From the NCBI GenBank assembly GCA_004563595.2, contig CP042461.1, positions 120,001 through 152,000 of the forward strand: a stretch of 32,000 nt of DNA. Reading direction: 5' to 3'. Below, piece after piece: positions 6,239 to 19,988 of this stretch (its first letter is position 1; each line of letters starts with the position of its first letter). Under the pieces are notes generated by a model, which saw only the letters and a list, made by a program, of their open reading frames with translations, made no database searches and was not told the origin of the DNA. The translations under genes were made by a program, and so were the position numbers. The DNA comes from Candidatus Saccharimonadota bacterium (GTDB lineage Bacteria > Patescibacteriota > Gracilibacteria > BD1-5 > UBA6164).

Positions 6239-7387
6239 ATGAAAATTAAAAATATATGAGCTTTTACATTAATAGAGATTTTAGTTTGAATTCTGATCAT
6301 ATCATTTATTATGATTTGATGATTTCAAGCATTGACAGCAGTATGAATATGAAAAGTAAGACTTATACAACAAACAGATATGCAAAAACAAAGTTTTTAT
6401 TTTACAGAGAAACTTTTTGAGATGATTAAGAAATGAGGGACGCTTGATTATGAAGAATTCTTTAATAGGAAAACTGTTTGAAATGTAAGCTTCACATGAG
6501 GCCACTTTTTATCTCCTACCTGATTTGGGAATTTTTGAGAATGATGAAGTATATGATCAACTGCTTATGGAGCGAATTTTTATTATTGTAGAAGTTGAAA
6601 CGGAGTAGATATTATGTGAACAGGTTGATGCGTAGAAACATCAAATACCTGAACTTTAGCTAATGATTCGAGCTATATTGGGACTGCGCAACGATATGGA
6701 CAGTATAGCTTTCAGTTTATTGATTATAATTCAAATGCGGATGATGATTTATGAAATGAGAATGGCATAAATTGAATTATTTGAGATGATGATGATGAGT
6801 ATTTATGAGAAGGCCCAATTGTTTTTAGCGGATGAACAAATATCACAGAGCTGTTTCTTATTAGTTGAGATAATAAAGAAAGACTATTATTTAGATGGGA
6901 TGTCAAGAATGATCCGGATTATCCATGAAGTGCATGTAACTTTTGAGATTGATCATCTCCTACTTGAAGTGGCTGTCTTTGAACTATAGAGTATTTAAAG
7001 CTAGAAGGAAAAGATTGGTGAATGGACCATGATGAATGAACTTCCGATACGAATAATACTCAGTATGATGGAGTTATTGATACTTGGATCATTGATACTG
7101 ATTTTACTTGAGGAGCAAATATTATTGCAGCTTCGAACACTACGAATTATTGGGTATCTCTTTTTCCAGATACTATTAATGTATCGACTTTTGCAGTGTT
7201 TGCTTATCCAAATAAAGATAGAAACTTAGCTTGGAGAGATGCCAGCCAGTCTACTAATATTACTCCTTATGTGAGGTTAAAAATTGGATTACTTCCATCT
7301 TGGAAGAGCAGAAAACAAATAAAATGAAACCCAAGAGAATTAAAGTTTTCTACCACTATTAGCCTTACTGATATTTTTTCTAATTAA
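6239..7387 (+). CDS. prepilin-type N-terminal cleavage/methylation domain protein (type IV pilin / pseudopilin-like, 382 aa)
   Basis: N-terminus MKIKNIGAFTLIEILVGILIISFIMIGGF matches the class III signal (G-x-FTLIE plus a hydrophobic helix). It is followed by a large C-terminal domain rich in Gly, Asp and Asn. Confidence 0.75.
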
Positions 7388-8397: not shown

Positions 8398-9411
8398 ATG
8401 AAACTATTTAAAATAGAAGAAAATGATGCGAATCAGAGGTTAGATAAATTTTTAAAAAAATTATTTCCATCTGCAACAAGAAGCCTGATTTATAAGTTTA
8501 ATAGGAAAGATAAAATTAAGATTAAGTTTGAATGATCAGAGTGAAAGTATAGAAAAAGAGATAATGAATACAAAATTCAAGAGGGAGATGAAATAAAGAT
8601 TTTTTTGAGTGATGATGACTTTGATGAGTTGACCTCACCCCAAGCTTCTTCTGTAGGAGAGGAAGTAAAGGGAGAGAAGTTTCATAAAGAAAATATTGCA
8701 TATGAAGATGAGGATTTATTCATTGTGAATAAAAACTCTGGGATAAATGTACACCCATGAGATTTTAAGACAAAAGAAATCTCACTCATTGCTCAAGTAC
8801 AAGATTATTTATGAGATACACTTAATAGTCTTACTTTTAAACCCTCGTTAATTCATAGGATTGATAGGGATACGAGTGGGATCTTGATGATAGCAAAGAA
8901 AAAAGATATTTTAGTAAAACTTGTAAATGATTTTAAGAGCCATACAAAAGTAAAAAAAACTTATTATGCTATAGTTCTTGGAAAACTGAGTAGAACATCA
9001 TGATCAATAACAAAAAAACTTCTCAGAATAGAAAATGCAAGAAATGAAGCAAAAGTTCAAGTATCTGAAAAGGGGCAGACAGCAATTACTCACTATAAAC
9101 TTTTAGCAGAACATACATTACAAACAAAAGAATGAATTGTGATTCTTTCGGAAGTTGAAGTAAAAATTGAAACATGAAGGATGCATCAAATTAGGGTGCA
9201 TATGGCCTCAATTGGAAACCCAATAATTTGAGATAAATCGTATTGAGATAAAAAAATGAATTCTTTTATGATGAGACAATATGGTCTCAGTAGGCAAGCC
9301 TTACATGCTTGGAAAATAGAGTTTTTTCATTATGCTAAGAATAAGAATATGGAGATTACAGCAAGCTTAAAAAAAGATCTTGCTCAATTTATCACTAATA
9401 TACAAAAATAA
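8398..9411 (+). CDS. RluA-family 23S rRNA pseudouridine synthase with N-terminal S4 domain (337 aa)
   Basis: S4-like RLDKFLKKLFPSATRSLIYKFNRKDKIKI. Catalytic motif PSLIHRIDRDTSGILMIAK. C-terminal GRMHQIRVHMASIGNPIIGDKSYG. Confidence 0.9.
8629..8679 (+). repeat. degenerate copy of the ACCTCACCC...hairpin element, in frame inside the rluA-family gene
   Basis: ttgACCTCACCCcaagcTTCTTCTgtaggAGAGGAAgtaaagggagagaag encodes LTSPQASSVGEEVKGEK. It aligns with the copies at 11636 and 16743. Confidence 0.5.
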
Positions 9412-10247: not shown

Positions 10248-11387
10248 ATGGTTTGAAAAATTCTAAAACTTATGTTTACCAGAGGACTTTCAATGAAAAG
10301 GTGGAATAATTTTCCACGTATTGAAGATGTAAGTCACTTGGATAATATTTGATACAAAGTACACATTGCATTGTTTTTAGCATATTTAGAAGAAAAAAAT
10401 TGAACTTCAGTTGATAGAGAGTTTTTAATAAAAAGAATTATTTTTAATTCATTTAGATGACTGGTAATCTCAGATATTCATTCGTGAACAAGAGATTATA
10501 TAATGGAGATTGATAGTGATATTTTTTCAGAAATTGAGAAAAAGGCATATATAGCTATTTTTGAAAAAGAAGCTCCGTCACATATAAAGGAGGATATGGA
10601 AAATACGATAAATGATAACTCAAAAACAATAGAGCTAGATATTATTTTTGCAGCAAAGAAATATGCTGCGTATAGAGAGTGTCTTGTAAATGAAAAAGTA
10701 TATTCAGATATGTATGAAGTTCCTTTAAAATGACTTATCATCTCACTTGAAAAACAAAGAAAGAAATTGAAAAGTCTCGATATTCTCTTAGGAAATGATA
10801 ATTATATAAAATTTTTATCACATATTAGAAGGCTCTCACATTCTCTGAGATGGAATCAAGAAAAAAGAATGTTTCCTGTATCTGTTATGTCTCACTTAGT
10901 TATTATAACTTTTATTTCATATGTATTATGAAAGATTGAGAATGATAATGGAGGAAATTATAATATTCTTGAACTCATGTTAAAATCAATTTATCATGAT
11001 ATTCCAGAGGCTATTACATGAGATATTATAACTCCAACAAAAAAATCAGTTTCATGATTTGAAGAGGTTTTAGAAAGAGTAGAAATAAAAATGATGGATG
11101 ATTATCTTTTTTATTATGTGGAGGATGATTATAAAGAACTTGTAAGCGATTATATGTTGCAGCCATTTGAGGGCGATCATGGAGTTTTATCAAAAAAAGC
11201 AGATATATTAAGTGCATTATTTGAAGCAAAGGTAGAAGTAAATAATGGGGCTACAAATTTTTATGATATATATAGAAAAATTAAAAAGAAAGTAAATTCA
11301 TTTGATTCAGTAAGTGTTGATTACTTCGTAAGAGATGCTCTTGATAGTTTTGATGATGTTTCAGACGATATTAATTTAAACAACTAA
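10248..11387 (+). CDS. HD-domain phosphohydrolase (YfbR-like 5'-nucleotidase family, with insertions; 379 aa)
   Basis: LKRWNNFPRIEDVSHLDNIGYKVHIA..., VSVMSHLV and IYHDIPEAITGDIITP (H...HD...D metal-binding pattern). Confidence 0.65.
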
Positions 11388-11389
11388 AA

Positions 11390-12175
11390 ATGAAAACCTA
11401 CGATAAGTTTTTAAAATACTACGATGAGATTGTGAGAGGAGTGAATAGTCCTCTAGAAGAAGAAGTAGAATTTTTAATAGAAGATGTTATAAATGAACAT
11501 AAGCCAGATACAAAAAACATTTTAGAAACAGCTTGTTGAACTGGAGTGATAGCACGTGAAATTATTAAAAAATGATACTCAGTTACGTGACTTGATATGA
11601 GTGAGAATATGTTGAAAATGGCAGAAGTGAATCTAAAAACCTCACCCCTAACCCCTCTCCTTCGGAGGAGAGGGGGAGGACAAAAAAAAGATGCCGGACT
11701 TGTACTGGCTGATATGACAGATTTTGATCTTGAGGAAACTTTTGATACGGTGTTGTGTAATTATAATTCTATTTGTCATTTATTGAAATGGGAAGATTGG
11801 GTGAAATTTATTGAGATGGCAAATAAACATTTAGAAAAAGATGGATTATTCGTATTTGATATTAATACGCTCTATGAATTTGAAAATATAACAAAAGACT
11901 TTGCCCAATTTTATACATTTTGAGATGATAATGTGTGTTTAGAAATGTTTAAAGTTGGATGATATTTTGAGTGGCTTGTGAAGATATATGAGAAATCTGA
12001 TGATGGAAGATTTGATCTTACTACTGAAGTAGTGAGAGAAAATAGTTTCCCAATTTCTAAAATAGAAAAAGAATTGAAACAACAAGGGTTTAAAGTTCTT
12101 GAAAAAATAGATTATCATTATGGAGAAGTAACTGCAAAAAGTGAAAGGGTATACTTTATTTGTAAAAAGAAGTAA
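11390..12175 (+). CDS. class I SAM-dependent methyltransferase (261 aa)
   Basis: Motif I ILETACGTGVIAREI, and GLDMSENML. The post-I region is interrupted by the repeat-encoded TSPLTPLLRRRGGGQKK, then LADMTDF and a C-terminal dimerisation-like region. Confidence 0.8.
11636..11689 (+). repeat. 54-bp hairpin element inserted in frame in the methyltransferase gene
   Basis: aaaACCTCACCCctaaCCCCTCTCCTtcggAGGAGAGGGGgaggacaaaaaaaa. It has a perfect 10-bp G+C-rich stem (11652-11661 / 11666-11675) in an otherwise AT-rich gene. Confidence 0.75.
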
Positions 12176-12254: not shown

Positions 12255-12533
12255 ATGAAAAATTGAAACAAAGCACCGAGTGGGTGTAGTTTATTAGATG
12301 GAGCAGTAAAATTTGAAGAAGCATCAAGGGAAGATAACATAATGTCATTGTCTTCACTATGAGATATATACTATGAATTAAGACTTTATACTCTTGCGAG
12401 AATATTTTACTTAGGAGCTCTCGGGGTTCATCGAGAGGGAAAAAAAGATGATTTAAGTATTTGTTTCGTGAAAGAGATGAATTTGAAAATAAAGGATGTA
12501 GAAAAAATACTAGCAGATGAAAAAACAATATAA
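12255..12533 (+). CDS. hypothetical protein (92 aa)
   Basis: A strong SD (AAGGAGG) lies 5 nt upstream of the ATG. The ORF is open under table 25. No family was recognised. Confidence 0.45.
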
Positions 12534-16166: not shown

Positions 16167-17213
16167 ATGAAAATACTTGCATTTGAGACATCTTGTGATG
16201 ATACATCTATAGCAATTTTTGAGGATGAGAGACTACTTGCTATGAATACTGATAGTCAGATCAAAATTCATAATAAGACCTGATGAGTAGTTCCTGAGGT
16301 AGCTGCACGTGAACATGCAAATGTTATTTTTGATGTGCTTACTCAAACCCTAGAGGATGCGAATACAAAACTTGAAGATATTGATTATATAGGAGTGACT
16401 ACAAATCCTGGATTACTCCCTTCGCTGTTAACAGGAACCACGGTTGCTTCCACTATTTCAACAGTTTTACAAACAAAAATAATACCAATAAATCATATAG
16501 AGGCTCATATATTTGCAAATTTTCTTGAGAGAAAAGAGAGTGAGATAGAGTTTCCATTGGTATGTTTAACGGTGTCGGGAGGTCATAATGATATGTATTC
16601 TATGAAATCGATGTGGGATTTAGAAAAAATCTGAAGCTCATGAGATGATGCGTGAGGTGAAGCTTTTGATAAGGTAGCAAAAATGATGGGGTTATGATAT
16701 CCTGGAGGGCCGATTGTGAGTCAGTTGTCGGAAGAGTATGAGAAAACCTCACCCACAACCCTTCTCCTGTCAGGAGAGGGGAGTAAGAAAAAAAGTTTAT
16801 TCCCTCGTGTTTGGCTTGTAAAAAAAGAACATAATTTTTCTTTTTCTGGACTGAAAAGTGCGGTAAAAAGAGAAGTTGATAAAAGAATAGCAGAAAAGTG
16901 AGAATTATCTGACTTGGATAAAAGAGAGATTTCATATGAATTTGAAACAGCAGTTGTAGAGGTGCTGGCTTATAAGCTAGTTCAGGCTGCAAAACAAAAA
17001 TGAGTGGAAACGGTTATGTTAGCAGGGTGAGTAAGTGCAAATAATAGGTTGAAAGATCAGATAGAAACACTTTGTAATAAAGAATGATTAGAATTTATAT
17101 ATCCTAAAAAACTTGTATACTGTATGGATAATGCAGCGATGGTAGGAATAAACACTTATTACCGTGTGAAATACTGAGAGTTTGAAGATAAAATATGAGT
17201 TGTGAAATTATAA
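16167..17213 (+). CDS. tsaD: tRNA N6-adenosine threonylcarbamoyltransferase TsaD (348 aa)
   Basis: [31 protein letters not shown] (GG encoded by TGA TGA at 16281-16286), [60 protein letters not shown]. Confidence 0.94.
16743..16796 (+). repeat. 54-bp hairpin element inserted in frame in tsaD
   Basis: aaaACCTCACCCacaaCCCTTCTCCTGtCAGGAGAGGGGagtaagaaaaaaag encodes [17 protein letters not shown]. It sits in the loop between the GYPGGP motif and the FSFSG motif. Confidence 0.75.
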
Positions 17214-19932: not shown

Positions 19933-19988
19933 GAAATGAGACCTCTCACTTGAATTCTCTCTCCTTGTCAGGAGAAAGAGGCTGCATG
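19933..19988 (+). repeat. repeat A: palindromic element copy 5' of the DUF559 gene
   Basis: gaaatGAGACCTCTCACTTGAATTCTCTCTCCTTGTCAGGAGAAAGAGGCTGCatgg. It is an inverted match to 20381-20430 and a direct match at both ends to 20475-20553. Confidence 0.8.

Follow-up and report, generated by a model that had tools for sequence, protein, structure and literature searches.

In-frame BoxC/TM-type hairpin repeats in Gracilibacteria genes and their association with genes for DUF559 nucleases

How does a G+C-rich hairpin come to lie, in frame, within the gene for a methyltransferase? The question is raised by copy W1 of a repeat element, which occupies positions 11639-11683 of a 32,000-nucleotide (nt) stretch of contig CP042461.1 (positions 120,001 to 152,000), from a genome deposited as a Candidatus Saccharimonadota bacterium and placed in the Gracilibacteria by GTDB; this whole stretch is referred to here as the window. 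A first-pass annotation, made from the letters of the window, had described the element as a dispersed hairpin repeat, inserted in frame at a surface loop that tolerates it in the manner of Rickettsia palindromic elements (RPEs), and the analysis below bears this description out. The reading that we consider probable has three parts taken jointly: W1 is an inserted copy of the BoxC / PIT / TM_ECO repeat family, in-frame insertion of such copies is recurrent, and a nuclease of the DUF559 family would propagate the copies or be propagated together with them.

The window has a G+C content of 29.5% and reads sensibly only under genetic code 25, in which TGA encodes glycine. TGA stands as a sense codon in the GGVVPE motif of tsaD (TGA TGA, 16279-16284) and in the GxGxG motif of the methyltransferase (11537-11539) and, because of this sense use of TGA, a list of open reading frames (ORFs) made with translation table 11 fragments nearly every gene of the window. 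The closest database homologues of the methyltransferase carry the name Candidatus Gracilibacteria. The host gene and the parts of W1 are as follows.

11390..12175, + strand: host gene, class I S-adenosylmethionine-dependent methyltransferase, 261 amino acids (aa) under code 25, Pfam Methyltransf_25/11
11639..11683, + strand: copy W1, BoxC/TM-type element, 45 nt, 15 codons, encodes TSPLTPLLRRRGGGQ
11640-11648, + strand: pyrimidine box of W1, CCTCACCCC
11649-11651, + strand: spacer of W1, TAA
11652-11661, + strand: C arm of the W1 stem, CCCCTCTCCT
11662-11665, + strand: loop of W1, TCGG
11666-11675, + strand: G arm of the W1 stem, AGGAGAGGGG
11676-11683, + strand: tail of W1, GAGGACAA

The hairpin CCCCTCTCCT-TCGG-AGGAGAGGGG (11652-11675) has a perfect 10-bp stem and a 4-nt loop, a pattern with one match in the window and none in 100 dinucleotide shuffles. 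Folded as single-stranded DNA, this hairpin reaches -13.2 kcal/mol (z = -3.65), a stability equalled by 0 of 200 shuffles, and local G+C is 47%, against 29.5% for the whole window and 25-34% across most of the adjoining 1.3 kb. Shuffles, fold z-score and local G+C thus uphold the perfect stem and the strong compositional contrast that had been noted at the outset. The extent first given to the insert, 54 bp or 18 codons, stands in part. The 54 bp that begin at 11636 are indeed codon-aligned within the ORF 11390-12175 and free of stops, with the translation KTSPLTPLLRRRGGGQKK; however, because the empty site of the orthologues is Lys-Lys, the Lys codons at both ends are most likely the host gene's own, which leaves a predicted element proper of about 45 nt (11639-11683) and 15 codons. 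On its G-rich strand, W1 reads CCCCTCTCC-TCCGAA-GGAGAGGGG-TTA-GGGGTGAGG, in which the two G blocks are mirror-symmetric.

An AlphaFold2 model of the methyltransferase, computed from the database version of the protein with Trp at its five TGA codons, has a mean predicted local distance difference test score (pLDDT) of 87 and places the W1 insert between a helix (residues 72-83) and a strand (103-106); residues 84-102 are coil and residues 89-100 have a pLDDT of <50. Homologues in the PDB show a gap of ~13 aa opposite the insert. The suggestion that the insert sits in a surface loop accords with this placement in low-confidence coil.

Comparison with the 120 closest methyltransferase sequences, in which a carrier was defined as having at least 10 extra aa at the W1 site, was the check that the annotation had proposed, and it came out in favour of insertion: 103 of the 120 have no such insert and the 17 carriers are scattered. 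A typical orthologue is 244-245 aa long and has an empty site that reads ..AEKNL-D-KK-N-LVLADM.., and the inserts of the carriers are related yet different (for example, NPPLTPPLNKGGGQKV, SSPHPSPEGDGIKW and CPPSNSPLAGGEHI). On a neighbour-joining tree, several carriers have empty sister sequences, and Fitch parsimony requires at least 16 gain/loss events with a root state of 'absent'. The patchy distribution is robust; the count of 16 events is approximate, because the protein is short (245 aa) and recombination could contribute. W1 is an insertion that was gained after this methyltransferase split from its closest orthologues, and insertion at the site is recurrent. We rejected an ancestral loop on the root state, the scatter of the carriers and the many orthologues that lack the insert. 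Loop length does vary among class I methyltransferases, which is what a reading of the segment as an ancestral, lineage-specific loop, or as an assembly artefact, with no inserted repeat at all, could draw on; such a reading is extremely improbable, as the element also occurs in unrelated genes and in intergenic DNA, related copies occur in independent assemblies, and contigs as long as 493 kb in the database encode the window's own methyltransferase protein.

At the DNA level, the methyltransferase copies in the loci L001, L002 and L004 share both the site and the codon phase of W1, and the copy in L005 lies at the same site in a different phase. In L001 and L004, the gene also has copies at two positions other than the W1 site, and one copy uses the second open frame (NPHPNPLP...). 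One loop of the methyltransferase has therefore been hit many times across lineages, and other loops of the same gene have been hit elsewhere; the recurrent occupation of a single site might be likened to homing. Stems at the methyltransferase site stay paired despite changes on both arms (CCCCTCTCCT/AGGAGAGGGG versus CCCCTCC/GGAGGGG). At the second site of the orthologue in L001 (4470-4575) there is a composite insert of ~30 aa, TSPPSPQLRSNFEDSRSSTPVSVILKGEGS, which looks like an element with an expanded loop or with added extra DNA.

The window holds two further copies of this type in unrelated genes.

16746..16787, + strand: copy W2, in frame in tsaD, stem 16759-16768 / 16772-16781 with one G.T pair
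8632..8667, + strand: copy W3, decayed, in frame in the gene for an RluA-family pseudouridine synthase, encodes TSPQASSVGEEV

Local alignments of W1, W2 and W3 score 55, 39 and 25, relative to a shuffle mean of ~15, and are matched by at most 2 of 1,000 shuffles; W2 and W3 have the same orientation and codon phase as W1. The claim that homologous copies sit in tsaD and the RluA-family gene, oriented and phased alike, is supported by these scores. The site of W2 corresponds to a gap of 14-15 aa in PDB homologues of TsaD, all solved TsaD structures are without the copy, and in the syntenic relative L004 the loop is shorter and the element absent. For W3, the net change in length relative to orthologues is just 1-2 aa. 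The gain in length is smaller than the element in tsaD, in the RluA-family gene and at site 3 of the methyltransferase; host codons were therefore partly replaced, or the loops differed beforehand. Counting the arms described below, the 32-kb window contains three copies of the G+C type and three of the arm type. A G+C-rich hairpin, GAGCTCTCG-GGGTTCAT-CGAGAGGG (12410-12439), also lies in the spacer between the methyltransferase gene and a THUMP/RlmL-type gene, and could be a terminator or a decayed element.

To which family do these copies belong? All aligned copies share one layout, in which a TAA-like spacer separates the pyrimidine box, CC(T)CACCC(C), from a hairpin of one C/T and one G/A arm. 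The literature on BoxC/PIT/TM repeats reportedly runs from Bergler 1992 through Bachellier in the 1990s to Hoyne/Maher 2000. On the G-rich strand, the BoxC / PIT / TM_ECO pattern is CCCTCNCCC-N3-6-GGGNGAGGG-N3-GGGNGAGGG (Holder et al. 2015, PMC4666352), in which three blocks are defined: a C-rich stem, a loop of 3-6 nt, the complementary G-rich stem, a loop of 3 nt and a mirrored G block; the same authors equate BoxC with TM_ECO (PMC4666352). W1 has the 'type A' layout of TM_ECO (TTA as the second loop), with a one-base register shift from the published regular expression. A copy at L001 662-709, CCCTCACCC-TAA-CCCTCTCCC-AAA-GGGAGAGGG, fits that expression exactly, and copies in L004 and L008 depart from it by one mismatch in the stem, a deviation that the published pattern permits. 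The Escherichia coli copy beside ycjD and the Gracilibacteria copy in L004 are nearly identical, and an exact 18-mer, CTCACCCTAACCCTCTCC, is common to two Gracilibacteria copies and E. coli K-12. The copy between ycjD and fabI fits the pattern in Table 1 of Holder et al.; that it is the original 'box C' of Bergler 1992 is not confirmed from the primary paper.

Judged by its layout, the element is a member of the BoxC / PIT / TM_ECO family, and the proposal that it founds an undescribed family specific to the candidate phyla radiation (CPR) therefore fails: E. coli has been known to carry this repeat since the 1990s, and the family occurs in very many phyla. Rfam gave no family match anywhere in the window, and we rejected an RNA gene on this ground and because either orientation, and two frames, are represented among the copies. 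Likeness to the described repeats extends from the three-block layout, the TTA second loop, high G+C content and multiple copies, as singles or inverted doublets, to local instability and differences in presence or absence between relatives. TM_ECO is present 23 times in E. coli MG1655, 'always located intergenically', and 3,610 times across 262 proteobacterial genomes, with related G+C-rich motifs abundant in cyanobacteria and no TM_ECO reported for Salmonella (PMC4666352). Its single strand adopts, in vitro, a stable intrastrand triplex structure, although the triplex was not detected in vivo, and TM_ECO is tied to local genomic instability, with no mobility genes found nearby (PMC4666352). 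In contrast to the strictly intergenic copies of MG1655, the Gracilibacteria copies are mostly translated in frame within housekeeping genes, they are found in a code-25 organism with 29.5% G+C, and the family reaches many more phyla than had been reported. Intergenic location describes where the E. coli copies lie; the sequence definition of the family does not include it.

Beyond the window, the 18-mer CTCACCCTAACCCTCTCC occurs in >120 viral contigs of 35-70% G+C, with the full layout every time, and the pattern of the window's subtype occurs at >120 genome loci, both counts being lower bounds. Among the matches listed, the subtype is found in cyanobacteria, Ignavibacteria, Chloroflexota, Armatimonadota, Bacteroidota, Melainabacteria, Alpha- and Gammaproteobacteria, Bdellovibrionales, one Firmicute and at least eight CPR lineages. 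For a census we ran a profile built from 247 copies against ~170 kb of non-redundant Gracilibacteria-like DNA, which yielded 20 non-redundant elements. Sixteen lie inside long ORFs under code 25 (14 sense, 2 antisense) and four are intergenic, three of these as arms of DUF559 genes. The hosts include genes for DNA ligase (two copies), an RsmB-type methyltransferase (three copies) and a radical-SAM enzyme; the three copies in the RsmB/F-type gene of L008 (10431-11891), from a different Gracilibacteria genome, are all in frame, at 11236-11337 and 11414-11453, the former being a head-to-head, REPIN-like doublet within the ORF.

This intragenic lifestyle extends beyond the Gracilibacteria. In a genome sample from many phyla, 36 of 127 copies lie within ORFs of at least 150 codons, and the ten cases checked are genuine genes, with Pfam domains flanking the insert on both sides (Dus, an SdhA-like flavoprotein, FemAB, MgsA, a kinase, PatG, an M48 peptidase, UvrD, an nSTAND/CHAT protein and FliO). 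Sense copies occur in Pfam-verified genes of Nomura-, Gottesman-, Moran- and Falkowbacteria and of cyanobacteria. The copies observed keep the frame, use one of two stop-free sense frames and lie in loops; when translated, the inserts are predicted to form short disordered segments of the type Pro/Ser/Thr...Gly/Glu/Arg. Sense copies predominate again at low-G+C loci (about 18, versus 3 antisense). Both orientations offer two stop-free frames, and stop codons therefore fail to explain this bias, which may instead reflect selection against two G-rich, Shine–Dalgarno-like blocks in the mRNA, or strand-specific insertion.

A bias of this kind, 14:2 in the census and about 18:3 at low-G+C loci, raises the possibility that the hairpin is kept for a benefit in cis, as an mRNA hairpin that pauses ribosomes or stabilizes the transcript, as a hot spot for recombination or mutation, or as a flexible linker. 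Stems that remain paired through changes on both arms, and the instability of TM_ECO loci in E. coli (PMC4666352), would fit such a role, but we think it quite improbable. Most orthologues are without the insert and close sisters differ in its presence; copies decay, as in W3 and the site-1 copy of L004; two reading frames are used, giving different peptides; and paired changes are equally explained by the insertion of different subfamily members. Moreover, E. coli elements had no promoter or terminator activity in earlier work, as far as it is cited in PMC4666352.

What, then, moves the repeats? A candidate is encoded downstream of W1, where arms with the same layout enclose a gene for a DUF559 nuclease.

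19939..19983, + strand: left arm of the DUF559 unit, AGACCTCTCA-CTTGAAT-TCTCTCTCCT-TGTC-AGGAGAAAGAGGCT
20018..20443, + strand: gene for a DUF559 (PF04480) Vsr-like PD-(D/E)XK endonuclease, 141 codons, E = 1.2e-28
20383..20427, - strand: right arm of the DUF559 unit, an inverted copy of the left arm
20473..20552, + strand: third copy of the arm element, interrupted by ~35 nt with a second motif, ..CCCTAAAGGATGACAC..

The two arms of the unit are 45 nt long and 98% complementary, with the layout of the element and a richer content of A+T. The last codons of the gene, ..IVASFSGQGERIQERG.., run through the right arm, and the C-terminal ..ASFS that the arm encodes is conserved in many DUF559 homologues of Gracilibacteria. 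The protein has the residues that are invariant across 13 aligned DUF559 homologues, and its nearest solved structure is 3hrl. At the syntenic site, L004 lacks the whole unit. The second motif, approximately ATCCTTTAGGACAGGA and present in the window at 20491-20520 as ..CCCTAAAGGATGACAC.., recurs beside DUF559 genes (downstream in L010, upstream in L255 and on both sides in L259/L262), both in Gracilibacteria-like loci and in a Bacteroidota-like locus that has no clear TM hairpins. Further along the window, just past an ORF of 2,110 codons (20778-27110), five small ORFs without a Pfam match follow in a row (27125-29863).

The same arrangement recurs in other lineages. The DUF559 gene lies between inverted arms in L009, L010/L011, L257 and L258, as it does in the window; in L253 and L255 there is a clear 3' arm, with an arm or a C-arm/G-arm hairpin upstream, and in L008 arm-type hairpins are visible by eye on both sides, although the repeat finder scored no pair. 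The left arm in L009 is G+C-rich and identical at ~41 of 44 positions, loop included, to a solo copy that lies in frame 2 kb away, and the right arm has an A+T-richer spacer, so this pair bridges the G+C-rich and A+T-richer forms of the element. W1 itself aligns strongly with the left arm of a DUF559 gene in Synechocystis. A single-protein DUF559 scan of metagenomes gave 6 loci; two distant metagenome genes (31-34% identity; 45% and 58% G+C) lie between inverted C-arm/G-arm hairpins.

In E. coli, ycjD, a DUF559 gene, runs into a decayed hairpin, with a BoxC copy ~170 nt downstream. TM-type hairpins occur within ~200 nt, often on both sides, in all eight DUF559 loci examined from named taxa (Picosynechococcus, Synechocystis, Neisseria, Deinococcus, Sphingomonas, Sinorhizobium, Klebsiella and Azospirillum), and 11 hairpins were counted at most 300 nt from DUF559, versus ~1 expected from the density in the surrounding 11-40 kb. 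Of the lineages checked, those of the window and E. coli included, all except one have such hairpins at a distance of ~200 nt or less from the DUF559 gene. Across phyla, then, DUF559 genes sit in clusters or inverted pairs of BoxC/TM-type repeats. No gene association was reported for the BoxC / PIT / TM_ECO repeats: ycjD is not mentioned by Holder et al. (PMC4666352), and the titles and abstracts of the DUF559 literature searched make no connection to repeats. Relative to the literature searched, the in-frame intragenic lifestyle, the presence in Gracilibacteria and other CPR phyla, and the link to DUF559 are new.

Several of these loci have features worth recording in their own right. On a plasmid of Synechocystis sp. 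B12 (L275, 19316-21840), a DUF559 unit with arms lies between a truncated DUF1156 gene and a gene annotated as 'hypothetical', and appears to have been inserted into the DUF1156 gene; on pAQ6 of Picosynechococcus (L265), a DUF559 unit lies directly upstream of an intact DUF1156 gene. In E. coli K-12 (L012), a 39-nt duplicate of the 3' end of ycjD (6321-6359 versus 6427-6465, 90% identical) lies between ycjD and the BoxC copy and looks like what is left of a second DUF559 gene or of a rearrangement. The ycjD region is matched at a coverage of at least 80% in 3,377 of 5,426 complete E. coli genomes and has no match in 281; most of the others match just the BoxC part of the query, elsewhere in the genome. 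In the 25 E. coli genomes listed, carriers of ycjD have more BoxC matches, a difference that is confounded by phylogeny and that we do not count as evidence. Some strains have a tandem duplication of a Bacteroidota-like DUF559 gene with ~300 nt of repeat-rich spacer (L262, 3001-4103; L263, 1660-2761), and in other strains one copy occupies that position, which lies in a gene cluster for exopolysaccharide. Neisseria gonorrhoeae (L276, 10800-13060 and 20500-21200) has long arrays built from two kinds of C-arm/G-arm hairpin unit in alternation, and one such array begins directly after the DUF559 gene.

DUF559 is a very large family without an assigned role, and we know of no activity for it; Vsr is a T/G mismatch repair nuclease. 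VSR, DUF559 and DUF2726 form one PD-(D/E)XK clade that includes the homing endonuclease I-Bth0305I (PMC3424549). As the clade contains a true homing endonuclease, a role in mobility is plausible for DUF559, although the gene here, unlike those of Vsr-like homing endonucleases, has no intron or intein. In a mechanism that we consider plausible, the DUF559 nuclease would propagate or maintain the hairpins, with its own gene riding between inverted copies. Its substrate for nicking or cutting may be the hairpin or triplex once extruded, or target sites rich in A, and an element from another locus would then be copied in during repair; in compact A+T-rich genomes, hairpins would land in coding sequence and be translated. 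Copies that replace host codons would fit such a cut-and-copy route. Two variants are possible: causality could run in the opposite direction, with DUF559 homing into pre-existing hairpin clusters, or new copies could arise from replication or repair alone.

A number of observations weigh against the three-part reading given at the outset. Because W1 is flanked by A-runs, a target-site duplication is unreadable, and the count of 16 gains comes from a neighbour-joining tree of a 245-aa protein, on which recombination between lineages could mimic recurrent gain. The DUF559 arms in the window resemble W1 and W2 chiefly in layout and in the hairpin itself. The P0217 lineage of DUF559 (Bacteroidota-like) is surrounded by other repeats and has no clear TM, and the flanking copies vary in orientation, being mostly inverted, direct in Neisseria and doublets in Sinorhizobium and Sphingomonas. 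Searches that started from the repeats placed DUF559 nearby in 0 of 120 viral loci, with one weak match in 120 genome loci; such rarity is expected if solo copies far outnumber the gene, yet it offers no positive support. As a repeat-first design is unfit if solo copies dominate, the survey was restarted from DUF559 genes. The evidence that suggests the link is gene context and sequence, and our view of the host covers 32 kb of a ~1.3-Mb genome.

Some of these observations suit a rival in which the repeats and their in-frame insertions are as described here and are moved by another enzyme, a transposase of the RAYT (REP-associated tyrosine transposase)/IS200-type Y1 class, or by replication or repair errors at a fork-stalling structure, with DUF559 as a selfish or accessory gene that landed, or was retained, in hairpin clusters. 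At E. coli TM_ECO sites, instability but no mobility genes were found (PMC4666352), and homing is known for the gene of a Vsr-like endonuclease from the clade of DUF559, I-Bth0305I (PMC3424549). Most copies lie far from any DUF559 gene, the flanking orientation differs between lineages, and one DUF559 lineage is without clear TMs. We nevertheless find this rival unlikely, if deserving of serious attention. No transposase was found among the window ORFs tested and no Y1_Tnp family match in the ORFs scanned, and 240 repeat-bearing loci (2 Mb) gave no match to an IS200-type TnpA, a weak test made with one query. The near-identity between solo copy and arm in L009, and the association of the repeats with DUF559 across phyla, would still need explaining.

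A close parallel in organization is with REP repeats (repetitive extragenic palindromes), their REPIN doublets and the RAYTs, in which short, dispersed G+C-rich hairpins likewise form inverted doublets and a small gene is flanked by inverted repeat copies. The flanked gene here, however, encodes a DUF559 PD-(D/E)XK nuclease and not a Y1 HUH transposase, the copies are mostly intragenic, and their sequence is conserved across phyla, whereas REPs are species-specific. REPs are described as bearing, at one end, a tetranucleotide tag that is conserved as GTAG or CGTC (Di Nocera et al. 2013, PMC3733652); inspection of the aligned element copies found neither tag, which also argues against RAYTs as the movers. 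We rejected membership in the classical REP/RAYT systems, as no Y1 transposase was found among the window ORFs tested and the flanked gene is DUF559.

Other mobile palindromes invite comparison as well. RPEs, which are about 100-150 bp long and confined to Rickettsia, are alike in being selfish-looking palindromic repeats that sit in frame where a protein surface tolerates them, in a reduced genome rich in A+T; with 35-45 nt and a pan-bacterial range, the element here is set apart from them by size and by its BoxC/TM relatives, not by sequence comparison. To our knowledge, a three-block, triplex-type layout has never been reported for RPEs. The G+C clusters of yeast mitochondria are short mobile G+C-rich palindromes of an A+T-rich genome, in frame in var1, but they are organellar and unrelated in sequence, and another mechanism has been proposed for them. 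Miniature inverted-repeat transposable elements have target-site duplications and terminal inverted repeats like those of an insertion sequence; the element here is essentially one hairpin, its A-run flanks would hide any duplication of A residues, and we know of no insertion sequence that matches it.

BoxC/PIT/TM repeats have been known for ~30 years, with their origin, spread and function unexplained, and the window ties them to DUF559. They are not just intergenic: among Gracilibacteria, further CPR phyla and cyanobacteria, they are written into TsaD, DNA ligase, RsmB, Dus, MgsA and other proteins. For annotation, this means that unexplained P/S/T...G-rich loops may be repeat insertions; for phylogenetics, that recurrent insertions at the same site can mimic shared ancestry; and repeat inserts also bear on the origin of new protein segments. 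By analogy with REP/RAYT, we tentatively suggest, with rather more doubt than attaches to the insertions themselves, that DUF559 could be the missing partner of the BoxC/PIT/TM repeats, in a pan-bacterial system of REP/RAYT type built on a Vsr-like PD-(D/E)XK nuclease. If this is true, such a system would repeatedly add disordered loops to conserved proteins across bacteria.

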